Assembly (NCBI GenBank): GCA_041690135.1
Contig: JAWLHY010000005.1
Location: 340,106-404,105 of the forward strand
Length of the DNA stretch: 64,000 bases
Source: Armatimonadota bacterium
Lineage (GTDB): Bacteria > Armatimonadota > SYMT01
Direction: 5' to 3'
Below, one piece after another: positions 2,388 through 64,000 of the stretch. Below the pieces are notes generated by a model. The model was not told where the DNA came from. It saw nothing but the letters and a program-made list of their open reading frames with translations, and searched no databases. The position numbers and the translations under genes are program-made. How positions within the stretch are numbered: the first letter of the stretch is position 1; every line of letters begins with the position of its first letter.

Positions 2388-2396
2388 GGACGGTAG

Positions 2397-2804: not shown

Positions 2805-2846
2805 ATTCCTTCTTCCCTTGGATCGGCTGCAGTTGCACTGCGCTCC

Positions 2847-36169: not shown

Positions 36170-37573
36170 ATGAGTGAGCGAGTGACGCGGCGGGAGTTGC
36201 TGGGCCAGGCGGGTCGCTCCGCGGCGACCGTGGGTGTGGTGGGTGTGGCGGGCGCGGTTACGGCCTCCGCGGCGCATGCCCAGGGTGCGGGCGGCGCACG
36301 TGAAGTGAAGAACGGCAAGCTCCAGGCGGCCCTGATTGGGTGCGGCGGCATGGGGCGCGGCAACATGAACAACTTGATCTCCCACAGGGGCGAGATCGTG
36401 GCCGTGTGCGACGTCGACTCCGAGAACATGGCGCGAGCCGCCGCCGATGCGGAGAAGCGCCAGGGACGCCGGCCGGCGGAGATCAAGGACTTCCGGAAGC
36501 TGCTGGAGCGGAAGGACATCGACGCGGTGATCATCGCCACGCCGGACCACTGGCACGCGCTGCCCTTTATCTATGCGTGCGAGGCCGGCAAGGACATCCT
36601 GTGCGAAAAGCCGATCTCCCACAACATCGAGGAAGGGCGCGCCATGGTGGCCGCGGCCCGGAAGTACGGCCGGATCTGCCAGGTGAACACCTGGCAGCGC
36701 AGCAACAAGGACTTCGTGGACGCCGTCCACTACATCCGCTCCGGCAAGCTGGGCAAAGTGACCACGGTCCGCGCCTGGAAGACCGACTGGTTTTCGATGG
36801 GCAAGAACACGCCCCAACCGGTTCCCTCCAACCTGGACTGGGACTTCTACCTCGGTCCGGCGGAAAAGGTCCCCTATACCGGCAAGAACGGCCACTTTAA
36901 CTGGCGCTGGTACTTCAACACCGCGGGCGGCAATACCGGCGACTGGGGCGTGCATATGATCGACATCGGGCTCCTCGCCATGAGCCCGGATACCGACCTG
37001 GTGATGCCGACGCACGTCTCCAGCTTCGGCGGCAAGTTCACCTCCGGGGCGGATGACGACCGCACAACGCCCGACACCCAGGTGGCCATTTTCCAGTTCC
37101 CGGAGTTCGTGCTGCACTGGCAGACCGGTCGCCGCGGCCTGGAGTACGGCTACGGAAAGCACGTCCCGGCGGGGGATGGCGGTCCGAAGCGAGACGCCCA
37201 GGACATCCTGGATAACGGCACGGCCTTCATCGCCGCCGACGGGAAGAGCCTGGTCGTCTGGCGCGGCGGCTGGATGGTCCGGGACGCGCAGGGCAACGAG
37301 CTGCCGAAGGTTTACGACGAGAGCTTCCCCCACCACGACCACATGCGCGACTGGATGGAGTGCATCCAATCCCGGAAGCAACCACGCAGCAACATCTACT
37401 CCATGTACCAGACCACGGCGGTCTGCCACCTGGCGAACGCCGCCTTCGTCTCCGGCGAAGTCGTCCGCTGGGACAAGGCCAAGGACGACATCGTCGGCAA
37501 AGCCGGCAAGAATACCCTCCCCTACGCCCGCGAATACCGCAAACCCTGGAAACTCCCCCTGCATCGGGGTTAG
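36170..37573 (+). CDS. Gfo/Idh/MocA family oxidoreductase with Tat signal
   Basis: Tat motif TRRELLGQAGRSAATVGVV. Rossmann motif ALIGCGGMGRGN. Shares a conserved C-terminal block with the paralog at 48722..50002. Confidence 0.85.
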   Translation: MSERVTRRELLGQAGRSAATVGVVGVAGAVTASAAHAQGAGGAREVKNGKLQAALIGCGGMGRGNMNNLISHRGEIVAVCDVDSENMARAAADAEKRQGRRPAEIKDFRKLLERKDIDAVIIATPDHWHALPFIYACEAGKDILCEKPISHNIEEGRAMVAAARKYGRICQVNTWQRSNKDFVDAVHYIRSGKLGKVTTVRAWKTDWFSMGKNTPQPVPSNLDWDFYLGPAEKVPYTGKNGHFNWRWYFNTAGGNTGDWGVHMIDIGLLAMSPDTDLVMPTHVSSFGGKFTSGADDDRTTPDTQVAIFQFPEFVLHWQTGRRGLEYGYGKHVPAGDGGPKRDAQDILDNGTAFIAADGKSLVVWRGGWMVRDAQGNELPKVYDESFPHHDHMRDWMECIQSRKQPRSNIYSMYQTTAVCHLANAAFVSGEVVRWDKAKDDIVGKAGKNTLPYAREYRKPWKLPLHRG

Positions 37574-47781: not shown

Positions 47782-48003
47782 GGATCGCTTTAACCGCAGA
47801 GGCACAGAGGACGCAGAGGGCGCGCAGAGAGGAAAAGAGGGGGAGAGGGTAGCGGTCACCGGGCGCTTGCAGGAATCTCCATGGCGCGTGGGCCGTTCGC
47901 GACATTTGCAATCGAACCTTGTACCGGGAAACCCGGACAACGTGCTGGATCCTGCCCGGAGTCCGCGAGATATCTCGGCACGGCGGTCGTCAGGGTCGCT
48001 GCA

Positions 48004-48237
48004 GGGTGCGTTCTTCTACCCTTTCGGCCCCCGGGCTGCGCGGATAAGGATAACGATAAGGATTCGGAAGCTGAAGCCATAAACGAGCATCCATTCGCCT
48101 TGTCAGGGTGCGGGCTTCGGCCTTCTCGGCCCCCCAAGCTGCGCGGATAAGGATAATGATAAGGATTAGGATGCTGAAGCCATAAACGGGCATCCGTTTA
48201 CCTTGTTTGGGTGCGTGCTTCTGCCCTTTGGGACTCC
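48004..48237. repeat. ~104-bp tandem repeat, 2.3 copies, intergenic
   Basis: Unit ...GGGTGCG(T/G)(T/G)CTTC..GGCCCCC..GCTGCGCGGATAAGGATAA(C/T)GATAAGGATT(C/A)GGA(A/T)GCTGAAGCCATAAACG(A/G)GCATCC(A/G)TT... begins at 48004 and 48105, with a partial copy at 48210. It contains a GGATAAGGATAA core whose reverse complement (CCTTATCCTTATC) recurs at 15945-15978. Confidence 0.7.
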
Positions 48238-48721: not shown

Positions 48722-50002
48722 ATGAACCGACGAGAGTTCGTGAAGAATACGGCAGTCGGTGCCGGGATCATGTCGCTGGGCGCGGAGGCGTTCCAGCCGA
48801 GGTCGGTCCGCGGCGCCAACGAGAAGGTGGTGATGGCGGTCGTGGGGCTCAACATCCGCGGCGGCCAGCTCTGCTCCAGCCTGGTGAAGCTGGACCAGGC
48901 GGAGATCGGCTACCTCTGCGAGGTGGACGAGAAGGTCCTGGGCCGGGTGACCGGGCAGGTCGAGAAGAGCGGTCGCCGCCGGCCCGAGGGGGTCCGTGAT
49001 ATCCGCAAGCTGCTGGAGATCCCCGGCCTGGACGCCATCCTCGTGGCGATGCCGAACCACTGGCACGGCCCCGCCACCATTATGGGGGTGCAGGCCGGGA
49101 AGCATGTCTACTGCGAAAAGCCCGCCTGCCAGACCCCCGAGGAAGGCGAGATGATGATCGCCGCGGCCCGGAAGTACAATAAGGTGGTCCAGATCGGCAT
49201 GCAGCGCCGCAGCATGCCGGGCGTGCAGGAGGCGGTCCAGAAGCTGCGGGAGGGCGTGATCGGGAACGTCACCTTCGCCCGCGGCTGGTACAACAACCTG
49301 CGCTCCACCATCGGCAACGGCAAGGTCGCGCCCGTGCCCTCGCACCTCGACTTCTCCCTCTGGCAGGGACCCGCGCCCGAGCGGCCGTATAAGGACAACC
49401 TGGTCCACTACAACTGGCACTGGTTCTGGCACTGGGGCAACGGCGAGCTCGGCAACAACGGCATCCACGCGCTGGACGTCTGCCGCTGGGGCCTCGGCGT
49501 GGACTACCCCACCCGCGTCACTTCCGGCGGCGGCAAGTACCGCTTCCCCACCGACGACCAGGAAACGCCGGACACCCACACCGCCACCTTCGACTTCGAC
49601 GGGAAGTCGATCACCTGGGAAGGCCGCAGCTTCCACAAGCGCGGCTTCGAGGGCAACGGCTTCGGCATGGCGTTCTACGGCGACGGCGGCACCCTGCTGA
49701 TCGACGGCGGCGGCTACCGGGTCCTGGACATGAAGGACAAGGAAGTGGCGAAGGTCCCCGGATCCGGCGCCCAGGAGCCGCACCTGCAGAACTTCATGGA
49801 CTGCATCAAGAGCGGGAAGCGCCCGAACGCGGACGTGGAGGACGGCCATAAGAGCACCCTGCTCTGCCACCTGGGCAACATCGCGTGGCGGACCGAGAGC
49901 ACGCTCAAGATCGACCCGAAGACCGGCCACATCCTGAAGAACAAGCCCGCGGCCGCCCTGTGGGGGCGCGAGTACCGCAAGGGCTGGGAGCCGAAGGTCT
50001 GA
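48722..50002 (+). CDS. Gfo/Idh/MocA family oxidoreductase with Tat signal
   Basis: Tat motif NRREFVKNTAVGAGIMSL. MAVVGLNIRGG Rossmann motif. C-terminal block ...FMDCIKSGKRPNADVEDGHKSTLLCHLGNIAWRTESTLKIDPKTGHILKNKPAA. Confidence 0.85.
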   Translation: MNRREFVKNTAVGAGIMSLGAEAFQPRSVRGANEKVVMAVVGLNIRGGQLCSSLVKLDQAEIGYLCEVDEKVLGRVTGQVEKSGRRRPEGVRDIRKLLEIPGLDAILVAMPNHWHGPATIMGVQAGKHVYCEKPACQTPEEGEMMIAAARKYNKVVQIGMQRRSMPGVQEAVQKLREGVIGNVTFARGWYNNLRSTIGNGKVAPVPSHLDFSLWQGPAPERPYKDNLVHYNWHWFWHWGNGELGNNGIHALDVCRWGLGVDYPTRVTSGGGKYRFPTDDQETPDTHTATFDFDGKSITWEGRSFHKRGFEGNGFGMAFYGDGGTLLIDGGGYRVLDMKDKEVAKVPGSGAQEPHLQNFMDCIKSGKRPNADVEDGHKSTLLCHLGNIAWRTESTLKIDPKTGHILKNKPAAALWGREYRKGWEPKV

Positions 50003-50461
50003 TCGGCTCCGGACGAGAGTCCACAGATTACGCAGCGCATGCGTCCGAATGGAATGGGAAAGATGGGAAAGATGGGGCTCCGCGGGTGCGCGGGGCCCCG
50101 CCTTTATCCCGTTCGGGTGCGTTCAGGCCGGTAGCTTTCGCAGAGTGGCCGCGTCGTGGGGAGTGGAGCAGGACATGAAGAGTGACCGTCGCTATCCGAC
50201 GCCGATAGAGACCGGTGAAAAAGTGCTGCGGAAACTTCGGGAGATGTCCCGAGAGGAGATCGAGGAGGCGATTGACCGGGAAGGTCGCCGCCTACAGGAA
50301 GCGGCGGCGCGGGGGTGTGCCCAACGCCGCGAAGAGCTCGCCCGCCGCTGAGTGCCACTCGGATTCCCAAGCCGTAGCCGGCCCCAAGCGCTTTGTGCTC
50401 AAGAATGACTGGGCGGCGGCGAAGCTCGTGGGCTGCTTTGCCCACGAGTCGCACCTGGAGA

Positions 50462-50648
50462 ACTTCACGGATGCATCAAGAGCGGCAAGCGCCCGAACGC
50501 GGGCGTCGAAGACGGCCACAAGTGCACGCTCCTGTGTTTATTAGGAAACATCGCTTACCGCCCCGAGAGCACGCTGAAGATCGACCCGAAGACCGGTCAC
50601 CTCCTGAAGAGCAAGCCCGCCGCCCTCTGGGGGGCGCGAGGACCCTAA
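50462..50648 (+). pseudogene. Remnant of the 3' end of a Gfo/Idh/MocA oxidoreductase gene
   Basis: Translates to CIKSGKRPNAGVEDGHKCTLLCLLGNIAYRPESTLKIDPKTGHLLKSKPAALWGARGP. This matches the last ~60 residues of the intact gene at 48722..50002 (nucleotide identity roughly 80%). It has no N-terminal body and no start codon. Confidence 0.7.
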
Positions 50649-50972
50649 GGGCTGTGCGCCCAAGGGCTAAGCAGCAAGGCCGCCTAGTCAACCAAGTAAG
50701 CCTATTAATAGCCACTTGCTGCCAGGTCTTTGCATTGGAATGAAGCCTTCGGGGATTTCGTTGGACACGATCATCCGCCAATCCATTTCTACACAAGTGC
50801 AGGCCAGATGACGCGTACTGCACAGGGTCGATGATCCAAATGATAGTCCGCAAGGAATACATTACTTATTCACCCCGGTCGGTATCTGGCCCTGCTGACG
50901 TTAGGTAGGCGCCTCCATTGACTTGGCGTGCATCGAGCCGCCGTGTATTTCAGGCGCGGGTTTTGCAACAGA

Positions 50973-53777
50973 TCATGTGGGCAATGCGCCCGGCGCGAGA
51001 AGCCAATTCCAGTCCGTCTGGGTGAAGGAACCAGTGCGGAACCGTTCTCGCAGAGCGTGGACGTCGGGAGCGAGGTTGGGGACCGCTTCCTCTGCGGCGA
51101 CCGCTTCGGCGTGGGGCATGGCGTCGGCGGCGAGGTCTGCGAGCGTCAGCACAGGAAGGCTACAGGTACCGCTGCGTACGAGCTGCTGCACGGCAGTGAT
51201 GACTGCAATCTCCTGGGGCAGCTCGGCATGGAGGTTGCGTGCGAGGAAACGGCCGCCGACCTCAGGAGCGTTTACGGCGCCAGCGGAGCGGAGCGGAACC
51301 GTGCCGTCTCCGCGAGTGTTGGCGGTGCCAAATAGGTTGGCGACGGTGGGGTGCCGTTGGCTGACGACCAGGTAGGCACGCGTCAGCAGCGGACTGCCGC
51401 TGATCTTGCCCTTCAGCGCGCGGCTGCGCTTGAGGTGCAACTCGGAGGGCGCCAACTGTGGATCCGGCCAGCCGTTGGTGCGGTAGAGGGGGTGCGCGTC
51501 CCCGAAAACGGCGGGGTCTGGCAGCATGTCGAGCAGGCCGGAGAGCGAGCAGGCCATCAGCTGGAAATCGCGAACGGTATCGTTCCGTGATAGGAACGCG
51601 AGCTTCTTGAGGGTATCGTAGGTGCCGAGCACGGCCTGCATCGACGCATAGCTCCCGTGCAGGGGGGAGCCCAGCAGCACTGCGCTCTCCACCCGATCGC
51701 TCCATTCCCGGTGCCGGGCCGCGTAGAGGCAGGCCACCAGACCACCCATCGAGTGGGCGACGAGCGCGAACCTTTTGTGCGGACGCTGGGCGGCGAGTTC
51801 CTCGATGAACCGGTGGAGACTGTCCGCCAGTGCTTCGATCGGCTTGCGCCAATCGTAGGAGAACTCGTTGACTACGAACCCGGCGTTGCGCCAAGTTCGG
51901 GAGGCGCGGGCGTAGGTGAGCCGGAGCATGCCGTCCGGCTTGAGCACCTGCCCCGAGGTGGCTTCGCGCACGCCGTCCGGATCGAGCGAGAGGCGCTCGG
52001 CCAGATCGCCCGCGAAGAACGCCAGGGGGTTGATCCAGAGCCGCCCGCCCATGCCGGCGGTGCGGGCTAGGTGCCCGCCGAGGATGCCGTGGATGAAGAC
52101 GATCTCCGGCAGCGCGGGATCGGCGCGGCGCCCGAAGAGCCCTGACAGGAACGATTCCTCCAGGGCGACGGACTCCACCGTGGGCTCCCCGAGCGATACC
52201 AGGGTCAGTTCCCGGATGAGGGCATCAGCCTCCGCGGGCGGCAGCACCGCGTAGAGGCGCCGGGCCGTTTCGGCGGGATGGTCCTGCAGCTCGGCGGCGA
52301 TGGCCGCATCATCGGTCTGCTCGTACCAGGCGGTGGGCGAGACCGCTTCCGGCGCTGCTGCCGGGGTCAGCCCGAGGGACGCCGGCGCGGGCAACGGAGG
52401 ACCGGGCGCTGCTGGGGCCGGCGTGCCAGTCTCGCTCGCCGCCGGGTTGGAGCGGGCCGCGCGCCGCGTGTAGACGGTGGGACCGGAGCCGCGGTAGGTG
52501 TCCCAGTAACGGAGCCATTCCGGATCCGGCTGCTCCGGCGCGTCTTCCGGCACAGGGCTGAACCGGAAGCCCAGCGCCCGCAGGTAGGGATCTCGAGCCA
52601 GCTCCCAGGCGGGCACCGCCCAGTTGGTGAGCAGGTACTGCCCCGCGAAGTGGAGGCCGATCACCTCTCCCGTGAGCAGATCGAGGATCGCAGAGCCGGA
52701 GTTACCGGTTAGAGTGGAGCAGTCGTGCGTGAGCGCCTCCACCTCCGGGCGATTGAGGGGCGCAAAGCGGGAGAGCGGCTCCCGGCCGCCGTTCCGCACC
52801 ATGCCCAGGAGCCCGGGGAGGAGCCGCTTGCGGCCGTAGATTCCCCGGAACTCCCGGTCCTGGACCTCTACGTTGGAGAAGGGGTTCCGGTGCGGATAGC
52901 CCACGGTGACCACGTAGCGGCTCTCCAGCGGGCCGGCGGGGCGGACGGAGGCGAGGGTCAACGGGCGGGGCATCGCAGCCCCTAGCGGCGCCCGCACGGC
53001 CAGGACCGCGGCGTCCCAGTATGGGTGGATAAGGGCGACGTCTTCCACCTCCAGCAGCACTGGCGCCGGCTCCGGGGTGCCGGACGGGTGGACCTCACGG
53101 CGGGTGTCCAGAGCCGCCGCTCCGGGCCGGTAGGAGAGCGTACCGCTGCCGGGGTGCCCATGACCCGACGCGAACAGCTGCGCGACGTGCCGATTCGTCA
53201 GCAGCAGCCCCTCCCCCACGAAGAAGGCGGTGCCGCCGAACGGACGGAGCGGGTCCTGCGGCAGTTCCACGCGGCCAATGGCGGGGAGGGCGGCCTCCAG
53301 CAGTTCCCGCTCCCGGGGGCGGCCGAGGAATTCGAAAGGGAAGGCCGGCGTCTGGTACGTACCGCCGGTGACGTCGATGACGGGGCGCTCTCCGGGCAGG
53401 ATCACCTCTTCCAGCACTAACGCTTCCCGGGCGGTGAGTGGGTCCCCGTTCACCAGCTTGGTGACTACGTTCTGCGCGGTGCGGATCGTCTCGTCGGTAA
53501 GCCCTGGCGATGGGAGGGTGAAGGACTCGAAGGCCGCTTCCTCCCGGGCAGCCTGCTGCTGCCGGGACGTCAGCATCCGGGCGACGCTTTCCTCATTGAT
53601 CGGCCGCGCGGGTGGGAGCAGAGCCGGCGCGCTTCCTTCCGCCGGGATCCCCTCTTCTTCTCCCCGCTGGAATCGCTCGTGGAAGGCCTGCGCGGGCCGA
53701 TCCGAAGGGATTTTGCGTACCTGCTCGAAGTAGCGCAGGAGACGCTGCTGGTGGGCAGGAGAGTACGGATCGCTCAT
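50973..53777 (-). CDS. Multidomain putative effector: N-terminal helical adaptor, trypsin-like (S1) serine peptidase domain, Pro/Ala-rich linker, C-terminal alpha/beta-hydrolase (LCAT/PGAP1-like lipase) domain
   Basis: Start set at ATG 53777 (MSDPYSP..., RBS AAAGGA); the ORF track start is 53876. Peptidase region GGTAFFVGEGLLLTNRHV (His) ... TGNSGSAILD (Ser). Lipase region ...FALVAHSMGGLVACLYA (GxSxG nucleophile elbow). Confidence 0.7.
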   Translation of the reverse strand: MSDPYSPAHQQRLLRYFEQVRKIPSDRPAQAFHERFQRGEEEGIPAEGSAPALLPPARPINEESVARMLTSRQQQAAREEAAFESFTLPSPGLTDETIRTAQNVVTKLVNGDPLTAREALVLEEVILPGERPVIDVTGGTYQTPAFPFEFLGRPRERELLEAALPAIGRVELPQDPLRPFGGTAFFVGEGLLLTNRHVAQLFASGHGHPGSGTLSYRPGAAALDTRREVHPSGTPEPAPVLLEVEDVALIHPYWDAAVLAVRAPLGAAMPRPLTLASVRPAGPLESRYVVTVGYPHRNPFSNVEVQDREFRGIYGRKRLLPGLLGMVRNGGREPLSRFAPLNRPEVEALTHDCSTLTGNSGSAILDLLTGEVIGLHFAGQYLLTNWAVPAWELARDPYLRALGFRFSPVPEDAPEQPDPEWLRYWDTYRGSGPTVYTRRAARSNPAASETGTPAPAAPGPPLPAPASLGLTPAAAPEAVSPTAWYEQTDDAAIAAELQDHPAETARRLYAVLPPAEADALIRELTLVSLGEPTVESVALEESFLSGLFGRRADPALPEIVFIHGILGGHLARTAGMGGRLWINPLAFFAGDLAERLSLDPDGVREATSGQVLKPDGMLRLTYARASRTWRNAGFVVNEFSYDWRKPIEALADSLHRFIEELAAQRPHKRFALVAHSMGGLVACLYAARHREWSDRVESAVLLGSPLHGSYASMQAVLGTYDTLKKLAFLSRNDTVRDFQLMACSLSGLLDMLPDPAVFGDAHPLYRTNGWPDPQLAPSELHLKRSRALKGKISGSPLLTRAYLVVSQRHPTVANLFGTANTRGDGTVPLRSAGAVNAPEVGGRFLARNLHAELPQEIAVITAVQQLVRSGTCSLPVLTLADLAADAMPHAEAVAAEEAVPNLAPDVHALRERFRTGSFTQTDWNWLLAPGALPT

Positions 53778-53926
53778 GGATCTATCCTTTAAGTTACAGG
53801 CGAACCGGCGACCGGGCGTGGGGACGGCCTGAGGCGACCGGCAATGCAGGGAACTTTCTACCGGATGGTTGAACAATAGAGGGTGTCATTCCTCGCTCTG
53901 GGGGTAACGAGGCTGCCCGTATTGAG

Positions 53927-54014
53927 ATGAGTGCCGGTTGAGCCTGCGCCTGGTGAGCGAGCTAGGGGCTACAGGGGGCAAAGCCTGCCTGCGCAGGCTG
54001 GGAGTTCCGGCACT
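53927..54014. promoter_or_regulatory. Long interrupted inverted repeat in the divergent promoter region of the two peptidase genes
   Basis: GAGTGCCGG-TTG-AGCCTGCGC ... GCGCAGGCT-GGGAGTT-CCGGCACTC: two 9-bp arm segments on each side with a ~40-nt central region. Located between divergently transcribed genes 50973..53777(-) and 54342..55526(+). Confidence 0.45.
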
Positions 54015-54341
54015 CAACCAACGGTCTTCCCGAGAGGCGGGTACAAGCATGGTCTATTTGTGCTCGCCAGGACCCCGGACGAGAGATCCAATCGGGAGGC
54101 AGGTACCGGTCTGGCCTGGTGCCGAGATCCCTCCTGCAGTTAGGATGACTCCTTATGGGGGGCGACAATGCCCGGGTACGGTATTTTGTAAGTGGAAGCC
54201 GTTCAGTAGTGTTGCGTTCAGGATAACTGGTCCCGCAAGGTGTGAAATGCGTGAATGCCGTTGTTTGAGACCCACTACGACGAACCGGTTTCTGCTTTCG
54301 GTCAGCAATAGGTCAGCATTCGAACTACCTGACTACCGACT

Positions 54342-55526
54342 ATGCCCACACTCACGCGAGCTCAAGAAGATAACCTGATCCGGATCCTCTCCCGGCATCC
54401 GGATTTCCAGACGGCGGAGGACCGGCTGCGGTTGCTGCTGCAGATCATCCCAACCGCGGCGGACGGGGACGAGACCGCGTACCACGTGAACCTGGGAAAG
54501 GATGCCATCCGGGTCGCGGAGGGATTGCTCGCGCAGCTCAAGTTCGAGGGGGTGGGCCCGGACGGGGTCCACCGCCTGCGGCACATGGTAGCCGGTCTGC
54601 GGGAGAAGGTGCGAGACGAGCGGGACCGGGGACGGCTAGCGGGGATGCTCACCTACCTGGACCAGCACACCCCGGCGGTGGCGCCGCCCCCGCCGCCCCC
54701 GGCGCCGCTCCGCCCGGACCCGCAGCCGCGGCTGGACCCCGCGGACTGGCGGGGCAAGAATTCCGACGCACCGCCGTATGAGAAGGTGGTGCGGGTAAAT
54801 ACGCTGCGGCAGTTCTATCTGCTGGAGCGTGCGGTGCCTGCTTCACGCGGGGTGTTCCGCATCGAGGGACGTCCACCCGGCACGGAAGGCGAGCCGGCGG
54901 CTTCCACCGGCTTCCTCATCGCCCGCGGTGTGGAGACGGCCCCCGGCGGACCAAGGGTGGCGCTAGCGATGACGAACCACCACGTGATCGCCACTCTGGA
55001 AGAGTTCCCCGGTTATGAGTGCTGGTTCAATTACCGGCTTGACCTGGACGGCCGCGAGCCGGTGCCCTCGCCGCAAGGGTTCTGCAAGCTGCAGCCGCTG
55101 CCGCTGGCCGAGTGGTTCTTTACGGACGCGGGGCTGGACGTAACGGTGTTTGCGCTCGACGATGCGGTGGTGCCGGCGAATGCGGTGGCTCTGGGGGTGC
55201 GAGAGGCCCGCCCACTGGAGGGGGCGCGGGTGCCGATCATTCAGCACCCGAACGGGGAGTACCTGCAGATCTCGTTCCAGAGCAACTTCATCGCGTACGC
55301 GAACGACGAGATCCTGCAATACACCACTACTACCCTGCCCGGCTCTTCGGGCTCCCCTGTGTTCAATGAGCGGTTCGAGGTGATCGGGATCCACTCAATG
55401 GGCGGGGACCTGCCCCACCCCGGTCAGCCAGGACTGACTACCCTAATCAACCAGGGCACTTCAATCAAGGCGATCCTGGCGGTTCTGCCGGGGGCTATCC
55501 GTGGGCGGGTTATGGTGCTGGGGTAA
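54342..55526 (+). CDS. Trypsin-like (S1) serine peptidase with N-terminal alpha-helical adaptor (EAD-like) domain
   Basis: N-terminal ~110-aa helical region (EDNLIRILSRHPDFQTAEDRLRLLLQIIP...). Pro-rich linker (PPPPPAPLRPDPQPRLDP). Catalytic domain with LAMTNHHVI (His) and TLPGSSGSPVF (Ser). Confidence 0.75.
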   Translation: MPTLTRAQEDNLIRILSRHPDFQTAEDRLRLLLQIIPTAADGDETAYHVNLGKDAIRVAEGLLAQLKFEGVGPDGVHRLRHMVAGLREKVRDERDRGRLAGMLTYLDQHTPAVAPPPPPPAPLRPDPQPRLDPADWRGKNSDAPPYEKVVRVNTLRQFYLLERAVPASRGVFRIEGRPPGTEGEPAASTGFLIARGVETAPGGPRVALAMTNHHVIATLEEFPGYECWFNYRLDLDGREPVPSPQGFCKLQPLPLAEWFFTDAGLDVTVFALDDAVVPANAVALGVREARPLEGARVPIIQHPNGEYLQISFQSNFIAYANDEILQYTTTTLPGSSGSPVFNERFEVIGIHSMGGDLPHPGQPGLTTLINQGTSIKAILAVLPGAIRGRVMVLG

Positions 55527-55728: not shown

Positions 55729-57408
55729 TTGAGTGGAGGGGGAGGTGTTAGCCCGGCTGACGGACAATTAACACTTGGGAGACAGCGGCTAATCCGAATA
55801 AGCCGCGACGAGGCACTGTCGTCTCCGGTACTGGTCTTGAGTTCGAACGTGCTCTTTCCACTGTTACAACCGGCCGACGAACGGCTGCTCCGCGACTATC
55901 TGCTCTCCGTGCTGGCACGAACCGGAGACGAGCCGGAGCGGCGCCGGGCCTTGTGCAAATACTTGCCGGACTCGGTAGCCCAGCTGCCGGCGGAGGCGTG
56001 GCTGACCGAGAGGCGGCTGCGACTGGACCGATCCCACGCTGAGATCCTGGAGCAGTTCTTCGAAGCGCTTCAGAGCCATCCGCCGGCGCTGTTGGCGCAC
56101 TTGGAAGTGCTGAGCCAGAGCGTGAAGGACGGGCCGACACGCGAGGAGTTCGCGCGGATGCGGGACGGGCTGCGGTTGGCCCTCGATCCGCTGACGGAGG
56201 CGCAGCGCCTTCTGGACGCCGCCGCTTCGGCGGACCCGGACGTCCTTCCGGACGCACTGGCCGCCGGTCTCTGGAAGGCGCTGGGGAAGCGCGAGTCGGG
56301 TACGTTCTGGCAGGCGGTGGCGCTGCTGGTGCCGCATCCCGCCCGCACTTACCAGGAGTCGGGACAGGAAGTGCTGCGCCTGCCGCTAGTGGTGGCGCTG
56401 GAGCGAACCGCGGCCCGGGTGGGCTTGTCCGGGCCAGACCGGACCCAGTATGGCGAACTCGTCCAGCAGGCGGTGGAGCGTCTTTACCCGCCGCCTCCCA
56501 AAGCCCCGGAGGCAGACCAAACAGCGCCGGGGCCTACCGCGCCGGCCTTCGATCCGATCACCGTGTACGTGCTGGCACTCGGCTCTAACACCCTGAGCAC
56601 GGCGGACACGCGCTACCGGCTGTGGTACACGGATCCGCAGGGAGACCGCGGCGCCCGAGACCTGACCGGCACCCTGAAGGAACTGCAGGCCGGCTTCTCC
56701 GCCTGGATCAGTGACGTCCTGTTCGAGTGGTCCGGCGATACCCCACTGGTGGAGTTTGTGCTGCCCGAGGAGTGCCTGGAGTGGGACGTGGAGCGTTGGG
56801 AAGTGGCCCTCAACCCGCGCAACCCAGCCACCGGAAAGCCGATTGGCACGGCGTTTCCGGTGGTGCTGCGGAACTGGGGGCGGTACGAAGCTCGGCCGCA
56901 CATCAAGCGCCTGGAGCGCCGCTGCAAGGAGTTGAAGGGCACCGGCACCCTGTACTGGTGCCACGAGCCGGCTCATGAGCCGGGCTTGCCGGTCTACCTG
57001 GACCACTCGGACTGCCGGACGGTGCTCTACCTGGGCGCGGGCTACCCCTTGCAGCGGACCGGCGGTAGAAACCTCTGGCTGGCGGTACTCCGGAACGGGG
57101 TTCCAGTAGTGATCTGGCGCCGCACCGCCGGCAGCGGAGCGGTGCCCATCCCGGACCAACTGGAGAAGCTACTCCATCAGGCACAGCGTCTCCACCCGTT
57201 CAACGAGCTGCCAAGTAAGATCAAGGACTGGCGCAGCCTGGTGATCCAGGAGCCACCGCAGTACGACGACACGGCGGATGAGGTCTCCCTGCTCTGGGAG
57301 AACCCCTACCGGCTCCCCGCCGCCCCACCCCTGCCCGAGGGGGCACCCACCGCACCCGACGAAGCTCGCCCGGCGCCGGCGCCCACCAGCACGGGGCGGA
57401 TCGATTGA
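55729..57408 (+). CDS. VMAP-like protein (vWA-MoxR-associated protein position) with N-terminal EAD-like helical motif
   Basis: 559-aa ORF immediately upstream of and overlapping (4 nt) the MoxR ATPase gene. There is no in-frame ATG near the 5' end, so TTG 55729 or a downstream GTG is the likely start. The N-terminus DERLLRDYLLSVLARTGDEPERRRAL resembles the N-termini of both peptidase effectors. No enzymatic motif recognised. Confidence 0.55.
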   Translation: MSGGGGVSPADGQLTLGRQRLIRISRDEALSSPVLVLSSNVLFPLLQPADERLLRDYLLSVLARTGDEPERRRALCKYLPDSVAQLPAEAWLTERRLRLDRSHAEILEQFFEALQSHPPALLAHLEVLSQSVKDGPTREEFARMRDGLRLALDPLTEAQRLLDAAASADPDVLPDALAAGLWKALGKRESGTFWQAVALLVPHPARTYQESGQEVLRLPLVVALERTAARVGLSGPDRTQYGELVQQAVERLYPPPPKAPEADQTAPGPTAPAFDPITVYVLALGSNTLSTADTRYRLWYTDPQGDRGARDLTGTLKELQAGFSAWISDVLFEWSGDTPLVEFVLPEECLEWDVERWEVALNPRNPATGKPIGTAFPVVLRNWGRYEARPHIKRLERRCKELKGTGTLYWCHEPAHEPGLPVYLDHSDCRTVLYLGAGYPLQRTGGRNLWLAVLRNGVPVVIWRRTAGSGAVPIPDQLEKLLHQAQRLHPFNELPSKIKDWRSLVIQEPPQYDDTADEVSLLWENPYRLPAAPPLPEGAPTAPDEARPAPAPTSTGRID

Positions 57409-57425
57409 AAACACAGGTATCTCCC

Positions 57426-58574
57426 ATGCAGCTCGAGCCCCCTACAGCTACTCCCAATCCGGACGTGCCCGCCGACTGGTGGGCATTCCACGGTGACCGC
57501 AACGCCGATGAGAAGATCGCGGCGGAGCGACGGTCCCGGCTGGGCCCCGCCCCGCCCTGGCGGCCGTCCCGGGCCGTGCCGGACAACACCCTCTACACGC
57601 CCCGTCCGGAGCCGCTGGGAGAGACCTATCGCTGCGGGAAGGCGGTGATCGAGATGGTCAACGCCGCTCTCGTGCTGCGGCGGCCGCTGTTGATCACCGG
57701 TGAGCCGGGCAGCGGGAAGTCGTCCCTGGCGTATGCCGTGGCGCGGGAACTGGGCCTGGGCCGCGTGCTGCGGTGGAACATTACCAGCCGCACCACCCTG
57801 CGGGACGGTCTGTACAGCTACGATGCCCTCGGGCGGTTGCAGGCTTCCGACCTGGGCGGCGACAGTGACCAGGTGGCGGAGATCGGGCAGTTCATCACCC
57901 TGGGGCCGCTGGGCACCGCGCTGCTGCCCTGGTCCACACCGCGGGTGCTGCTGATCGATGAGATCGATAAGAGCGACGTGGACCTCCCGAACGACCTGCT
58001 GCATGTGTTCGAAGAGGGCGAGTTCGAGATCCCGGAACTGGTGCGGCATCCGGATCCGGACGACCGGGGCGTGCGGGTGTGGCCGGACAAGGCGGACCGT
58101 CCGCCCCTGGACCGAACGAACCCGGTGCCGCCGGAGCAGTACCAGGTAACGGTGCACCGGGGCCGGGTGCAGTGCAGCCAGTTCCCCTTCGTGGTGCTGA
58201 CCAGCAACGCCGAGCGAGAGTTTCCGCCGGCGTTCCTGCGCCGGTGCCTGCGCCTGCGGCTGCCCCGACCCGGCCGCGACCAACTGAAGGAGATCGTGCG
58301 GGCCCACTTCTCCAATCCGGAGCGGCCGGTGCCCTCCGAGACGCAGCTCGACGAGCTGATCAGCCGGTTTCTCAAGCGGCGGGACGTGGGCGCCCTGGCC
58401 AACGACCAGCTGCTGCAGGCGCTGTTCCTGCGGCTGCGGGGCGGGGAGGCGATCGACAGCAACCCGGAAGATGACCTCCGGAACCTGATCAACCGGCTGC
58501 TCCATCCCCTGAACCAGCCGGAGGCGGCGGTGGAGCCGGACGAGGACGCGGATGACGGCTGCGGGCGCGGATAA
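57426..58574 (+). CDS. MoxR-family AAA+ ATPase
   Basis: Walker A LLITGEPGSGKSSLAYAVA. Walker B VLLIDEIDKSD. Sensor-1 VVLTSNAEREF. Arg finger PPAFLRRCLRLRL. ATG 57426 is chosen; a TTG at 57405 is the alternative. Confidence 0.85.
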   Translation: MQLEPPTATPNPDVPADWWAFHGDRNADEKIAAERRSRLGPAPPWRPSRAVPDNTLYTPRPEPLGETYRCGKAVIEMVNAALVLRRPLLITGEPGSGKSSLAYAVARELGLGRVLRWNITSRTTLRDGLYSYDALGRLQASDLGGDSDQVAEIGQFITLGPLGTALLPWSTPRVLLIDEIDKSDVDLPNDLLHVFEEGEFEIPELVRHPDPDDRGVRVWPDKADRPPLDRTNPVPPEQYQVTVHRGRVQCSQFPFVVLTSNAEREFPPAFLRRCLRLRLPRPGRDQLKEIVRAHFSNPERPVPSETQLDELISRFLKRRDVGALANDQLLQALFLRLRGGEAIDSNPEDDLRNLINRLLHPLNQPEAAVEPDEDADDGCGRG

Positions 58575-61500
58575 GTCGCCATCGGCGCCGGAATCCCTGA
58601 TCCAGTTGCTCGACTGCCTGAGCGGGCTGGAAACCCGCCTGCTCGCCGCGGAATTGGCGGACGTGCTCTGGCTGGCCCAGCGGCTGCCGGAGCGGCAGGC
58701 ACCTTCCCGGTCCGGGGAGGCGGCCGAGGCACCGGCAACGGAGGAGACGGAGAGCCCCCGGGATTCGGCCCGGTCCGAGGCCGGATCGCCCGACGGCACG
58801 CCTGCCCACACGGACGCCGACTCGGGTACTAACGCGGAGGTCGGACAGGAGAGGGAACGTCCACCGGGATCTGTCCCACCGACGGACGCCGGGCAGCCGG
58901 AGGACGAGCGGATCCGACTATTTCCAGGCCGTCCCAACTCCCCCGAGCAGACGGGCGCGGGCGAGATGCCTTCTTCCTCATTCCAGGGCACGGCAGCCCG
59001 CGCCCTCCCCCGGACCCGGCAGATCCTGCGGGCCCTCCGCCCACTCGCGGGCCGGGTCCCCTCGCCCCGGCGGGACGAGCTGGAGGTGGACGTCGAGGCA
59101 ACGCTCGAGCGGATTACGGAGGGGCTGCTGGCTGCCCGCGCTCGTTCGGAAGCCAGTGGGGCGGCGCGCCGCAACCGTCCCATTCCCCGCACGCCCGTGT
59201 TGCGGCCGGCCGAGGTGCGGCCCTACGAGCTGCACCTGGTGGTGGATACCAGCGCCAGCATGGCGGTGTGGGAGGAGGCTGCGGGAGAGCTGGCACAGCT
59301 GCTGGTGGGCCTGGGCAGCTTCTCGGACGTGCGGGTCTGGTACCTAGACACCCAGTCTGGCGGGGAGCCGCCGCTCTACGCGGGAGTCCGGTGCGGCGGG
59401 GGGACCCAACGCGGGGAGCGGCGGTCCGGTGCCGAGCTGCGGGGCGGGGGCGGCAGCATTCCGGGTGCCGGGGCGCGGCTGGTGCTGGTGCTGACTGACG
59501 GCCTGGGGCCAGCATGGTGGGATGGCCGGGCGCTGGACCTGCTGGCCTCCTGGGCGGACACGGGCCGGGTAACGCTGCTCCAGACGCTGCCGGAGCGGCT
59601 CTGGGGCCGCGCGGTGCACGGTGTACCTCGCTGGCTGGTGGGCGCCCACGAGGCCGGTGTCCCGAACCGGCGGCTGCTCACGGCTCCCCGGCCGGGCGTC
59701 CGCAGCGCGGCGCCGGCGAACGCCCCCCGGTATGATCGAGACCCGGAACGAGTTTACGTTCCGGTGGTCGCGCTAGACCCGGACCCGCTGCACACCTGGG
59801 CGCGACTGATGACCGGACGCGGCGGGGTGTGGCTGCCGGCGTTTCGCATGCGCCTGAAGTCCTCACCGGCCCAAACCGTCGCGCCTCTCGAGCCCGTAGA
59901 CCCGGAGGAGCCGGAAACCGAGGCGGCGCGGGCAGCCCGGATGGTACGCGAGTTCCGGGCTGGCGCCCCCTGGGAGGCACGCCGCCTGGCGGAACTGTTC
60001 GCGGCCGTGGGCACCCTCACCATACCGGTGATGCGCGCCATCCAGGATGCGATGGTGGCCGGCTCCGGGCTGGAGGCACTGGCGGAGGTGCTGGCCAGCG
60101 GCCTGCTGGAAGCCCGCGAAGCTGCGGGCGGGACGGTCTACGCTTTCCGTGGAGAGCAGCACGGGATAGCCCTGCGCCAGCGGCTGTGGCAGCGCGCAAG
60201 CGTTCCGGACACGCTGCGGGCCATGCAGACGGCACTGAACGAGCTCCAGCGGAGCGTGGGGGATTTTCTGGCCGGAATGAACGCCGAAGGTGCAGCCCAG
60301 CCGCTCCAGGTGCTTGATCCACAGGGCCTCCAGCGGCTGTCGGCGGACCACGCCCTGGCGCCGTTCGCGGCGGTGGCGGCGGAGTACCTGGAGTCGCTGG
60401 GCGGGCAGTACGTGCGGAGCGCCCGGACGTGGCAGACAGGCATCGCGTTACCGCCGCATCAAGGAGACGCCGGCGATCCCACGTCGTATTCGCTGAACGA
60501 TCTGATCGCGTTGTCCCGGAACCTGGACGGACAGGGCCCGTGGCTGCAGGGGAAGGTACCGCCCATCCATCTCCTCACCGCAGCGGAGAAGCTCGGGGAG
60601 CCGATCAGCGCGGTAATGCACCGGCTGGGCCGGTTTGAAGCCCGGTTCGAGCTGGAGCTGCCGGTGCTCGACGACCTCGAGCTGACGGCACTTGATGAGC
60701 CGCTGCCTAACGAAGCCGATCGGATCGTGCTGTCCCACGGTCTGGACGGCCAGACGCCCTGGCTGCACGGGCGGGTCGGGAAAGAACACCTCCTGGCAGC
60801 GGCCGTCCAACTGCGAGAGCCCGTGGTGACCGTGCGGCAGCGACTGGAGCGGTTCGCGGCCCTGTTCGAGCTAGAGCTCCCGGCACCCGGCGACCCCTCC
60901 CCCACCCAACCCCTGCGGGTCTTCGTCTCGGCGTCGTTCCGGTATTGCCACCAGGAACGGCGGGCGATCTTGGCGGAGTTGGCCCGGCGCCCGGAGATCG
61001 TGGACACCAGTTGGGAAGCACTGCCGGCGGACCAGCGGGACCGGCAGCACCGGCTGCCGGTGGTGGCCGCATGCGATCTCTTCCTGCTGCTCCCGGGGGA
61101 GGGGCCCAGCGCGGGGCTGGAGGCGGAATACGCCGCAGCATTGGAGCACGGGAAGACCTGCCTCGCATACTTCCACCGGGACGCGGCACCGCTGGACGAA
61201 ACCACGCGGGAGTTCTGGAAGAGACTCCGGGACCGGCACGGCGTTCGGACTTATGGCAGCTCGGAAGAACTGATCCGGCAGGTCTCACTCGACCTCGATT
61301 TTGAGCTGGCGCGGCTGACCGGGAAAGTTCAGGAGCACCCGATGGAGGTGGTGGTCCTGTTCTCGGATGGGCAATGCGCGGCTCTGCCGGTAGGCGTCGG
61401 CGTGTTGGACGCGGCGTTCCACGTGGACCCCGAGCTAGGGCTGCGGATGAACGGCGCGCGCGTGAACGGCGAGGCGGTGCCGCTGAGCTATCAACTCCGT

Positions 61501-64000
61501 CAACGGGATCAGGTGGAGCTGGTCACGACCCCCCACAGTTATCCGTCCCGGGAGTGGCTCGACTGGGTTCAGACCGAGCGGGCGCGGCACGCCATCCGGG
61601 ACTGGCTGCGCCGCTACCAGGTGTATGTGGCTGCCGGCGAGATTCCCGACATCCCGGGCCTACAGTTTGAGTGGGCGGTCCGGTCAGACATCCCCGAGAG
61701 AGAGCGAGCAGCAGTCCTCCGCGAATGCGGCCTCTTCATAGCCACATTCCGGCCGCCTGGGTTTGACTACTGGGAAGGGATCCGGGACGGAGATGTGTCG
61801 GTGGTCCGTGGCGCAGTAGGACAGCACCTTCCAGAGTTCGCTCTGGCCCGGCGGTTGGGACTCCGCTGCCTCATCTACCTGTATGACGATGTGGACGGCC
61901 GCAAACCCGCGGGAATGCTCACAGCGGAAACACTCTATCGCTGCGCTAATGTCTCAGAGTTGCGTGAGGCCATGCGCGGCGACTTCCAGGCGGCTGTGGC
62001 AAACCAATGGCCGCTAGAGGGGATTCGAGACGGACGAGAGCCCTTGCTCCGCGACCTGTACCAAATGCTAGGGCTACCCCCACTACGCAGTGATCTGGAG
62101 ACCTTCGAGCTCTCGAGGTTCGCTGGCGAGCGAGGATGGTTAGTCCAGGACTTGAACCGTCCAAATCTGGCGATGCTGGTGTCCGCCGTGCGGGGTTTGC
62201 AGAAGGCACCCGCGGCCGTATGGGCGTTGCCACTGCCGCGAACGAACGTCGAGAATGAACTTCTAAACCGCCTGGCAGGCTGGCTGCGCCAGGAACCGGC
62301 AAGCTCTCTGCGCGCGCTGCAGCGTTTTTGGGGAATGTGCGGTCGGGCGGCGCAGCAACCCACTGACGGGCGGGCGGTGGCGGGTTACCTTCTAGCGTTG
62401 GTGTGGTTGGGGCAACTAGTAGAGGGGAACTTTGGGAGGGCCGATCCCGCTCTGGTACTGTCCCCGCTGAATCCCCCCAACCTGCGCGATTTCCTCGTTC
62501 TCGTGGGGGGACGGCAGCCGGCGGCGCTCGATTTCCGCATTGCCGTGGATGGTGTGACAGTGGCGCACCTCCCCCGCCTTCGTCTCGACACACCCGAATC
62601 GGAGGTGAGGCGGCAGGCGCTGGAGGTTCCCGAGGTCGTTGAGCGTATCGTGAACCGAAACGTCCGCTCTGTCGAGGTGAGCTTCGGGACTGGGGTGACA
62701 ATTTCCACCGAGCCGGCATCCCACCCATCATTGACTGGATGCCGTGTCCTCTGGTGTGATCCCAAGCAAGACCGTGTCAATAGCAGGGAGATAAGCTGGC
62801 TCCAGCAACACGGCGCCGTGATTGCCCGCGTACCGCCCAGCCACGTTCAGCTAGCATTAGGGAGTGGGCTTCCATACGACGCGCTGATTACGAGCATGGG
62901 CGGCGTGTTGCCAGAGGAAGATAGTCTGGGCCTTCATGTGGTTAGGATCGCGAGGCGGCTACGGCCGGAACTCCCGGTGATCCTGTTTACCCACCGCACC
63001 GTGCCATCGGTTCAGGAGGCCAGAGAGGCGGGAGTTGCGCTGATCACCCCCAAAGTTGAGGTGATCCTGCGGGAACTCCAAACGCTGGTCGACCGCCGAA
63101 CCCCGACCCTGCCCGAGGATTCGGAGGGGTTCTACACGGAGCGCGGTCTTTGCGACGTGATCGACCGGTACCAACTCCGGAGTGGGCGCCAGGAAGCCGA
63201 CGCGGTGCTCACCCTGCTGCTGCTGTTCCGGACGGAGACGCAGCGGACGTGGTTGGCAACCACCCACCGGCATCTCTACATCTTGCTGGATGATGCGGAG
63301 ACGCGCGCTACGGGACCGGATACGGAGCGCGTGATCCAGGAAGAACTGACGCTGAAGGAGGCCCAGCCCGTCTTCAGCAGCGAAGCACGGGAGTGGCTGG
63401 AAACGCGTCTTCTCCACATCGGCCGGGCGCGGAACTGGCATTACACGCTCTCCCTCCACCCGCGTGCGCAGGACCTCGAGGTGACTGTCCGCGAGTTGAT
63501 TCTTAATGCGAGACACGGTGATCTTAACCCAACATACCGGCAGCTCTTGCTGCTGGCTGCCGAATACGAGGCCATCCAAGCGACACAAGAGGCCGGTGGC
63601 GAGCGCTCACGCCGTTCGGTATCGGTCTACAAGAGGATGCAGCGATCCAGCCAGGCAGCTGACAGGGCACTGCTTTCCCGCCTAGCTACCAGCGAGAGCC
63701 CGGGCGAACGGTTGGCGGCGGTAGCCATCCTTCAGGAGAAGCCAGCTTCGGAGTATCTGCACTGGCTAGCTGCCCGCGTGCATGAGGACCAGGCGTTTAT
63801 CGGGTATCAGGCCGCGCTGGCCCTAACCACGGCGGCCGAGGAACTCAATTCGGTCTACCTGGAAGAGGTAGGCACAAGCATCCGCTCGGCTCGGGATACA
63901 CTGACCTCAGAGGTGAAGGCCGGCACTGACACGGATCGCTACCGCGTACTCGAGCGAGGACTCGAGGTCCTCGTACAGCGCGAGCGGCAGGATGAGGCGC
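58552..64000 (+). CDS. Giant vWA-domain protein (>1816 aa, 3' end outside window) with DUF4062/TIR-like, TGS, receiver-like and HEAT-like modules; vWA partner of the MoxR ATPase
   Basis: A frame-1 ORF opens after TGA 58510-12. The first ATG is 58552, overlapping the MoxR stop by 23 nt. I found no stop codon through position 64000; it is absent from the ORF track because it is open-ended. MIDAS-type vWA motif LHLVVDTSASMAVW at ~59233-59274. DUF4062-like RVFVSASFRYCHQERRAILAEL (~60913). TGS-like VVVLFSDGQCAALPVGVGVLDAAFHV...ARVNGEAVPLSYQLRQRDQVELVT (~61342-61530). CheY-like CRVLWCDPKQD...PVILFTH (~62740-63000). HEAT-like C-terminal repeats. Confidence 0.75.
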   Translation, partial: MTAAGADKSPSAPESLIQLLDCLSGLETRLLAAELADVLWLAQRLPERQAPSRSGEAAEAPATEETESPRDSARSEAGSPDGTPAHTDADSGTNAEVGQERERPPGSVPPTDAGQPEDERIRLFPGRPNSPEQTGAGEMPSSSFQGTAARALPRTRQILRALRPLAGRVPSPRRDELEVDVEATLERITEGLLAARARSEASGAARRNRPIPRTPVLRPAEVRPYELHLVVDTSASMAVWEEAAGELAQLLVGLGSFSDVRVWYLDTQSGGEPPLYAGVRCGGGTQRGERRSGAELRGGGGSIPGAGARLVLVLTDGLGPAWWDGRALDLLASWADTGRVTLLQTLPERLWGRAVHGVPRWLVGAHEAGVPNRRLLTAPRPGVRSAAPANAPRYDRDPERVYVPVVALDPDPLHTWARLMTGRGGVWLPAFRMRLKSSPAQTVAPLEPVDPEEPETEAARAARMVREFRAGAPWEARRLAELFAAVGTLTIPVMRAIQDAMVAGSGLEALAEVLASGLLEAREAAGGTVYAFRGEQHGIALRQRLWQRASVPDTLRAMQTALNELQRSVGDFLAGMNAEGAAQPLQVLDPQGLQRLSADHALAPFAAVAAEYLESLGGQYVRSARTWQTGIALPPHQGDAGDPTSYSLNDLIALSRNLDGQGPWLQGKVPPIHLLTAAEKLGEPISAVMHRLGRFEARFELELPVLDDLELTALDEPLPNEADRIVLSHGLDGQTPWLHGRVGKEHLLAAAVQLREPVVTVRQRLERFAALFELELPAPGDPSPTQPLRVFVSASFRYCHQERRAILAELARRPEIVDTSWEALPADQRDRQHRLPVVAACDLFLLLPGEGPSAGLEAEYAAALEHGKTCLAYFHRDAAPLDETTREFWKRLRDRHGVRTYGSSEELIRQVSLDLDFELARLTGKVQEHPMEVVVLFSDGQCAALPVGVGVLDAAFHVDPELGLRMNGARVNGEAVPLSYQLRQRDQVELVTTPHSYPSREWLDWVQTERARHAIRDWLRRYQVYVAAGEIPDIPGLQFEWAVRSDIPERERAAVLRECGLFIATFRPPGFDYWEGIRDGDVSVVRGAVGQHLPEFALARRLGLRCLIYLYDDVDGRKPAGMLTAETLYRCANVSELREAMRGDFQAAVANQWPLEGIRDGREPLLRDLYQMLGLPPLRSDLETFELSRFAGERGWLVQDLNRPNLAMLVSAVRGLQKAPAAVWALPLPRTNVENELLNRLAGWLRQEPASSLRALQRFWGMCGRAAQQPTDGRAVAGYLLALVWLGQLVEGNFGRADPALVLSPLNPPNLRDFLVLVGGRQPAALDFRIAVDGVTVAHLPRLRLDTPESEVRRQALEVPEVVERIVNRNVRSVEVSFGTGVTISTEPASHPSLTGCRVLWCDPKQDRVNSREISWLQQHGAVIARVPPSHVQLALGSGLPYDALITSMGGVLPEEDSLGLHVVRIARRLRPELPVILFTHRTVPSVQEAREAGVALITPKVEVILRELQTLVDRRTPTLPEDSEGFYTERGLCDVIDRYQLRSGRQEADAVLTLLLLFRTETQRTWLATTHRHLYILLDDAETRATGPDTERVIQEELTLKEAQPVFSSEAREWLETRLLHIGRARNWHYTLSLHPRAQDLEVTVRELILNARHGDLNPTYRQLLLLAAEYEAIQATQEAGGERSRRSVSVYKRMQRSSQAADRALLSRLATSESPGERLAAVAILQEKPASEYLHWLAARVHEDQAFIGYQAALALTTAAEELNSVYLEEVGTSIRSARDTLTSEVKAGTDTDRYRVLERGLEVLVQRERQDEA

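Follow-up and report, generated by a model that had tools for sequence, protein, structure and literature searches.

Does the truncated oxidoreductase gene beside a defence-like block on an Armatimonadota contig mark the place where that block was inserted? We addressed this question for positions 50,003–50,972 of a 64,000-nt stretch of contig JAWLHY010000005.1 (assembly GCA_041690135.1, positions 340,106–404,105 of the forward strand; hereafter the window, whose numbering is used throughout). These positions lie between an intact Gfo/Idh/MocA oxidoreductase gene (48722..50002, + strand, 426 amino acids (aa), Pfam GFO_IDH_MocA plus C2/C3/C domains) and a peptidase-lipase gene (50973..53876, − strand), with which a block of genes resembling a conflict system begins. 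An earlier note on this DNA had proposed that the block at 50.9–64 kb was inserted by horizontal transfer into a Gfo/Idh/MocA paralog or next to it, leaving a remnant of that paralog and an AT-rich stretch at the boundary. Our analysis instead leads us to read 50003–50972, with moderate confidence, as a composite and largely non-functional recombination scar in the hypervariable 3′ flank of a conserved Gfo gene.

The centre of the scar is a 5′-truncated, frameshifted 3′ fragment of a Gfo/Idh/MocA gene (50393..50670, + strand; its left limit is uncertain, ~50384 to 50440). It aligns with the 3′ end of the intact gene at 75.8% identity over 285 aligned nt and at ~80% in the core, with 50472–50638 matching 49802–49968 at 81% over 167 nt and 50630–50675 matching 49962–50007 at 78% (46 nt). 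The local alignment score between fragment and intact gene was 152, compared to 11.1 ± 1.5 for shuffles, and tblastn of the fragment gave 85% aa identity over 55 residues (E = 1e-21), so that the match is far above chance and the fragment is best classified from its sequence as a Gfo/Idh/MocA pseudogene remnant. Recognisable homology runs from ~50393 (conservatively 50440) to 50670, or roughly 77–93 codons, and no resemblance to the N-terminal (Rossmann) body of Gfo was found left of ~50384. The reading frame is split into three segments by a 1-nt deletion near 50471 (−1) and a +1 insertion in a G-run near 50633; there is also an in-frame 3-nt deletion, and a premature stop at 50646–50648 ends the middle segment. 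The original stop position is kept (TAA, 50668–50670) and aligns with the stop of the intact gene. With the Rossmann body absent and the frame broken, the fragment is unable to encode a Gfo protein. The earlier note had seen the last ~60 residues of a diverged paralog at 50462–50648, with neither start nor N-terminal body; the remnant is real in that sense, but this interval is only the middle frame segment, and homology reaches beyond it by ~70 nt on the left and 22 nt on the right.

Orientation determines what the fragment can say about the block. The fragment lies on the same strand as the intact gene and behind it, with its truncated end toward the intact gene and its natural stop toward the conflict block. 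Insertion into a plus-strand gene leaves the 5′ part of that gene to the left of the new DNA and the 3′ part to the right. Here the 3′ part lies to the left of the block, so the block was not inserted into the gene from which the fragment derives, and insertion of an island into this Gfo paralog is excluded. The truncating event happened on the left side of the fragment, and the conflict system is accessory DNA that merely abuts the scar and is not the cause of the fragment. A simple 670-bp tandem duplication is likewise ruled out, since the spacer before the fragment (50003–50392) and the DNA behind it (50671–51070) are not homologous (score 9, compared to 10.9 ± 1.4 for shuffles).

We compared the locus with relatives found by a Gfo protein search, which led to members of the same 90% cluster and their contigs; none of the at least 160 loci obtained by scanning genome and metagenome contigs with the Gfo protein shared a flanking gene with the window. 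On the 17.5-kb contig L162, the nearest relative at hand, the Gfo gene is 87.8% identical in nucleotides, and the order desaturase–NmrA–Gfo is kept together with genes syntenic with window positions 29.9–35.8 kb. Homology between L162 and the window stops at the Gfo stop codon, such that the DNA from 50003 onward is lineage-specific; the boundary between conserved and variable DNA therefore falls at 50003–50022, the latter being the 20 nt 3′ of the stop codon, and not at 50650–50970, where the earlier note had placed it. The intact gene shows no similarity discontinuity at its 3′ end relative to L162 or L164. The block is absent from the same site in L162/L163, a single relative lineage. Gfo is followed there by unrelated genes that the window lacks, namely a 61-aa open reading frame (ORF), CheB, two Band_7 genes and a gene for a pentapeptide protein. 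Contigs L161, L166, L169 and L083 each carry yet other DNA 3′ of the Gfo stop, and the 3′ flank of the gene is hypervariable. Together, these comparisons support the interpretation of the DNA right of the Gfo gene as lineage-specific accessory DNA.

Synonymous divergence (dS) between the window and L162 is high (0.5–1.5). Among six syntenic genes, the intact Gfo gene (48722–50002) had the lowest dS relative to L162 (0.53; others 0.60–1.48) and an extreme GC content at third codon positions (GC3, 0.95), which is consistent with strong codon bias or recent allelic exchange. A second segment is also replaced between the two contigs: window positions 35.8–45.6 kb hold a second Gfo paralog (36170..37573), a PCC-domain protein, a thiamine pyrophosphate enzyme and a 1081-aa flavin adenine dinucleotide-oxidase/Fe-S/CCG protein, while the corresponding L162 interval (4.2–7.0 kb) holds one unrelated 676-aa gene. 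Because ordinary metabolic genes are exchanged in this way, loss of synteny by itself argues only weakly for an island.

Between the intact gene and the fragment lies a small conserved module (50023..50383, + strand) that consists of a hairpin and a small ORF and corresponds to positions 68–424 of contig L173 at 83% nucleotide identity. The GC-rich, terminator-like hairpin (50074..50099, + strand), as read from the sequence, has an 11-bp stem, a GGTG loop and a weak T-rich tract behind it, and was not flagged by a consensus terminator scan; it is kept in L173, where one stem pair has changed from T·G to T–A. The unannotated 58-aa ORF (50175..50351, + strand) had exactly one homolog among 1.84 billion representative proteins, located on L173 (214–390), with 79% aa identity, a ratio of nonsynonymous to synonymous divergence (dN/dS) of 0.28 and differences of 6/6/14 at the three codon positions. 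AlphaFold2 predicted helices at residues 10–23 and 26–57 (mean predicted local distance difference test score 87.9), two plain helices being too simple for a meaningful fold search. The ORF matched no family in Pfam, NCBIfam, PADLOC or PHROGs, and the conserved parts of the module had no match in viral contigs. The ORF is probably a real small gene of unknown function that is still under selection, to judge from its codon-position pattern, and the module is a separate unit with its own history rather than a junk spacer.

In L173 (1906 nt; Logan SRR15430508), the module is followed by two extra genes, encoding 169 aa and 174 aa (the latter with DUF7689), and then by a Gfo 3′ fragment, also frameshifted, which extends as far as the contig itself; all three L173 proteins are singletons. 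That a truncated Gfo fragment follows the module in L173 as well indicates that the scar has its own history. The L173 fragment is cut within ~20–30 nt of the position at which the window fragment starts. It is 90.6% identical to the intact gene of the window, with 12 changes specific to L173 and 2 specific to the window, and only 74–78% identical to the window fragment. The module and a truncated Gfo tail thus occur together in two genomes, in which the tails are not simple orthologs.

A further stranded 3′ end was found in L169 (whole arrangement 1547–5764). There, an intact Gfo gene (1547–2827) is followed by 2.9 kb with two paralogous, signal-peptide-like ORFs (414 and 352 aa) and then by an in-frame 3′ fragment of 156 nt (89% identity, dN/dS 0.17), behind which lie a GerE regulator and an IS66 transposase. 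The breakpoint is at approximately codon 376, ~125 nt from that of the window. The L169 gene is itself chimeric, with a 5′ part that is 87–89% identical to L161/L166 and a last 156 nt that is closer to the window/L164 type. A scan of 173 sequences turned up no locus other than the window and L169 in which an intact copy is followed by a close fragment on the same strand. Scans of the L169 and L173 insert genes against Pfam, NCBIfam, PADLOC and PHROGs gave DUF7689 only, and no core sequence shared by the left ends of the fragments was discernible.

We also assessed the ancestry of the window fragment. Local BLAST against 249 fetched proteins gave 73.6% protein identity to its own neighbour, 69% to P0121/P0122 and 58–62% to cluster 2, and a protein search with the frame-corrected fragment peptide returned no match. 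The fragment is 24% diverged overall from the intact copy, with 21/18/30 differences at the three codon positions and a dN/dS of 0.26–0.38, compared to 0.03–0.19 for functional pairs and ~0.5 expected if it had been dead throughout; the fragment was probably functional for part of its divergence. Its ancestry is mosaic: 50393–50570 groups with the L161/L083 lineage (98% bootstrap), a grouping due to TGTTTATTAGG...TAC, whose translation CLLGNIAY occurs in no other cluster of the 249 proteins, while the last 100 nt group with the neighbouring intact gene. A fresh copy of the neighbouring gene is ruled out by the 24% divergence, the intermediate dN/dS and the mosaic ancestry, and an old mosaic copy is the description that suits the fragment best. 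Dating by dS and dN/dS is too noisy to separate an in-genome from a foreign origin.

The non-coding 302 bp between the fragment and the block (50671..50972) have a GC content of 52.6%, and the 300-bp window that begins at 50685 (51.3%) is the minimum of all such windows in the 64 kb (mean 65.4%, sd 3.6%). The unusually AT-rich ~300 bp reported in the earlier note before the minus-strand stop of the peptidase-lipase gene are therefore borne out, as are the stop itself (at 50973) and a second low-GC spacer at the divergent promoter (300-bp minimum 53.7%, at 54079); the window mean had been overestimated at ~68%. GC is lower in 50671–50972 than in every other convergent spacer of the window (57.6–65.5%), while other intergenic minima reach 53–56%, such that the stretch is the extreme of a continuum. 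Its six frames are all interrupted by stops, and GC is not biased towards any codon position. We found no Rfam family and no promoter or terminator consensus in it, no more folding than in shuffles (RNA fold z-score −0.35), no second copy in the rest of the window or in any of the 173 fetched loci, and no plasmid match by BLAST. Its low GC would be most simply explained by unconstrained DNA under AT-biased mutation, that is, neutral drift, and a foreign origin is possible.

Signals of mobility were weak when the block was read from its left side, its right end lying beyond the 64-kb window. No tRNA was found in the window, no recombinase domain was found by Pfam in ORFs at 50–64 kb, and no flanking repeats were found in the window. 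Tetranucleotide composition deviates weakly (r = 0.625 and L1 = 0.181, compared to 0.69–0.80 and 0.08–0.13 for control blocks), and GC3 of the block genes (0.78–0.88) is within the range of the rest of the window. The suggestion that the block was acquired horizontally is thus upheld in part: the block is accessory, is absent from L162 and belongs to a patchy class, but it shows no marks of mobility as far as 64 kb and is barely deviant in composition.

For the fragment itself, we favour a displacement-type scar, an explanation to which we would give an even chance. We infer the following mechanism and order of events. A complete Gfo copy with its trailing module would have come to lie before the last ~90 codons of another copy, and an event on the left side would have orphaned the fragment from a Gfo allele or duplicate. 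Such a displacement would most likely have proceeded by homology-facilitated illegitimate recombination, in which one crossover falls in homologous DNA and an illegitimate join is made within the gene. Later short-tract recombination may have left the fragment mosaic, neutral decay would have followed, and the ~300 bp of unconstrained DNA may have drifted to low GC. The window has the arrangement expected of a displaced gene end: a complete homolog directly precedes the fragment on the same strand, the intervening DNA is unrelated, and the truncated end points toward the complete homolog. The same mechanism has been proposed for the orphan 3′ ends that displacement leaves in Rhs, contact-dependent inhibition (CDI) and type VI secretion system (T6SS) effector–immunity arrays (Kirchberger et al. 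2017, PMC5361080, citing de Vries & Wackernagel 2002 and Prudhomme et al. 2002).

Several observations weigh against displacement. In its pure form it predicts that the orphan is the native allele, and here it is the intact gene that has a native look, in agreement with L162, L164 and the L173 fragment, and the orphan that stands apart, if at few sites. That the window and L173 fragments are cut at almost the same point gives a hint of common ancestry or site-specificity, as opposed to illegitimate joins made independently, and, as the two fragments are only 74–78% identical despite the similar cut, gene conversion has to be invoked. The L173 module is preceded by non-Gfo sequence, where displacement would place a Gfo gene on its left flank. 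In the fragment segment, dS to the neighbour (0.58) is lower than that between the neighbour and L162 (0.81–0.88), which favours an in-genome duplicate or conversion. Estimates of dS, dN/dS and grouping for the fragment rest on small samples of 50–95 codons, and the comparison covers the block as far as 64 kb and the 1906 nt of L173.

Other origins were weighed against the same evidence. The view that the 50.9–64 kb block is a horizontally acquired island, with the remnant as leftover of its target and the AT-rich DNA as its edge, is unlikely as a whole; its paralog-insertion form is contradicted, and insertion next to Gfo is possible. It would account for the absence of the block from this site in L162, for the patchiness of VMAP-type systems and the occurrence of the best homolog, only 59% identical, in another context, for the slight tetranucleotide deviation, and for the position of the GC minimum at the junction. 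These features have to be set against a 3′ end that lies on the wrong side of the block for insertion into the gene, a synteny break at 50003 rather than 50650–50970, the linkage of the remnant to a module with which it recurs in L173, the lack of a tRNA, integrase or flanking repeats in the window, the ordinary GC3 of the block and the second replaced segment of metabolic genes. Slightly less likely again is an origin within the genome, in which a tandem paralog or partial duplicate lost its 5′ kilobase, or only a 3′ end was copied, and then decayed in place with occasional gene conversion and no foreign DNA. The fragment is closest in protein to its own neighbour, its dS to that neighbour is lower than that between neighbour and L162, its codon-position spread fits one neutral and one constrained branch, and tandem Gfo paralogs are common in the fetched loci. 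However, those tandem paralogs are only 23–33% identical, spacer and post-fragment DNA do not form a 670-bp tandem unit, and the CLLGNIAY/TTATTA patch is common only to another lineage. The module between the copies also sits in another context in L173, and the architecture recurs in L169, where the divergence is clean and mostly synonymous.

Site-specific integration into the 3′ part of Gfo, with tandem accretion of elements that bring a replacement 3′ end in the manner known for icd and tRNA genes, is quite unlikely in our judgement. The VMAP block would have arrived first, bringing the fragment as a working 3′ end, and the module would then have integrated at the same site and displaced it, such that the island would truly begin, on its left, with the fragment and the low-GC DNA. 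The fragments in the window and L173, whose cuts lie within ~20–30 nt and which both have inserted DNA immediately to their left, would fit this history, as would the signs of past selection and the foreign-lineage CLLGNIAY patch in the fragment. So would Gfo 3′ ends that are phylogenetically mosaic across the clade, including the chimeric L169 gene, and the succession of a gene or insert and then a 3′ fragment at three loci. Yet neither window positions 50–64 kb, nor the L169 insert, nor L173 encodes an integrase or recombinase, no core common to the left ends of the fragments is evident, the L169 breakpoint lies ~125 nt away, the L173 module is not preceded by the Gfo 3′ end that such integration requires, and the module has no match in viral contigs. 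An assembly artefact, in which a read pile of the real gene was mis-joined, has a negligible probability given 20–24% substitutions and three indels relative to the intact copy and the analogous structures in the independent assemblies L169 and L173; the remnant that the earlier note had flagged for this possibility is genuine.

The block beyond the scar can be assigned from its predicted proteins to a VMAP-type vWA–MoxR conflict system. The first gene (50973..53876, − strand) fuses a Trypsin_2 peptidase to an LCAT/PGAP1-type α/β-hydrolase (lipase) by Pfam; the database entry starts 33 codons later and has 934 aa. Across a divergent intergenic spacer (53877..54341, 57.8% GC), four genes follow on the + strand: a Trypsin_2 peptidase with a weak N-terminal EAD8-like region (54342..55526; Trypsin_2 58.4 bits, EAD8 23.6 bits, under the 27-bit cut-off), a VMAP protein (55729..57408; Pfam VMAP-C 93.1 bits), a MoxR-type AAA ATPase (57405..58574; Pfam AAA and AAA_5 above the cut-off, bpMoxR 26 bits compared to a 27-bit cut-off) and a very large ORF of >1829 aa that runs off the window (58513..64000). 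The last occupies the position of the vWA/effector component and matches the NCBIfam SAV_2336 N-terminal domain (312 bits) and Pfam wHTH-HSP90_Na-assoc and TGS, with no match to a vWA model as far as the window end. The VMAP-C protein and the MoxR AAA ATPase are encoded together in one operon, and L170–172 have the same gene order. The single Rfam CRISPR-DR28 match in the divergent spacer (53977–54000, +; 33.2 bits compared to a gathering score of 35 bits, E = 0.004) is one copy without an array and is probably due to chance.

The closest relative of the peptidase-lipase (P0131, 59% identity) heads a co-oriented five-gene VMAP system in L170–172, which adjoins an AAA_15/AAA_21 gene and not Gfo. 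At L170 10001–13682 the peptidase-hydrolase and EAD-trypsin genes are co-oriented and 23 bp apart, while the window has the first gene in reverse orientation, with the 465-bp, lower-GC divergent spacer in between, which implies inversion or independent assembly of the cluster. Homologs of the peptidase-lipase combine an N-terminal Trypsin_2 domain with an interchangeable lipase, NUC/endonuclease I, phospholipase C, S41 peptidase or calcineurin-like phosphoesterase, and this exchange of C-terminal domains behind Trypsin_2 is the classic effector-swapping pattern of conflict systems.

Upstream of the intact Gfo gene, CGCAGAG-rich repeats resembling repetitive extragenic palindromes or miniature inverted-repeat transposable elements occur in inverted orientation on both sides of the NmrA-like gene (46561–46609, 46814–46873 and 47783–47842), with arms of 60 nt at 77% identity and 49 nt at 82%. 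The 940-bp spacer between the NmrA-like gene and Gfo contains a ~103-nt unit three times in tandem (48002–48237), and the L162 spacer is only ~300 bp long.

For annotation, these results indicate that the fragment should be recorded as a pseudogene remnant, the ORF at 50175–50351 as a probable real small gene, and the start of lineage-specific DNA at ~50003 instead of 50650. A gene remnant beside a defence locus need not mark the insertion target of that locus, as the orientation of the fragment decides. The scar is an ordinary pseudogene or recombination scar at the edge of accessory DNA, and what makes it mildly unusual is only that stranded Gfo 3′ ends recur across three related lineages; should further genomes bear this out, the site would be a modest example of a hot spot for recombination located where a housekeeping-type gene ends. 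A more far-reaching possibility, which we regard as very unlikely, is that the 3′ third of Gfo (codon ~335–376) is a recurrent landing site for recombinase-less cassettes and larger blocks in an Armatimonadota-like lineage, with each arrival bringing or regenerating a 3′ end and stranding the previous one. If this were true, the window would hold two stacked arrivals, namely the module with its hairpin and 58-aa gene and the VMAP system, and a metabolic gene would contain an unrecognised attachment-site system.

Comparable arrangements are known from several systems. Phages and other elements can integrate into the 3′ end of a protein-coding gene while supplying a substitute 3′ end, as e14 and phage 21 do in icd of E. 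coli. The window resembles such loci in that the gene stays intact and a displaced, diverged 3′ fragment lies downstream, but neither an integrase nor an att core was found, only 0.37 kb separates the copies (2.9 kb without a recombinase in L169), and the large accessory block lies outside the duplicated pair instead of within it. In genomic islands delimited by a tRNA gene together with a direct repeat of that gene's 3′ end, a partial 3′ copy of a conserved gene likewise stands at the border of accessory DNA, as it does in the window, beside a local drop in GC; unlike them, the window has no tRNA or recombinase, its composition is barely deviant and one boundary is seen.

VMAP ternary (vWA–MoxR–VMAP) conflict systems are described as a patchy and mobile class (Kaur, Burroughs, Iyer & Aravind 2020, eLife, PMC7159879). 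The block shares with them VMAP-C, a MoxR-type AAA ATPase, trypsin-like peptidases, a huge downstream component with TGS and wHTH domains, and effector domains that are interchangeable among homologs. It differs from the co-oriented five genes of L170–172 in its inverted peptidase-lipase gene, and its vWA and EAD8 components are not above family thresholds. The scar, in turn, most closely recalls the orphans of Rhs, CDI and T6SS arrays, in which a complete gene, newly placed DNA and a stranded homologous 3′ end follow each other on the same strand, with breakpoints that differ between cases, as they do between the window and L169. Here, however, the gene concerned is a metabolic oxidoreductase rather than a polymorphic toxin, it has no immunity gene beside it, there is no obvious selective reason for turnover of its 3′ end, and the orphan is not native-looking.

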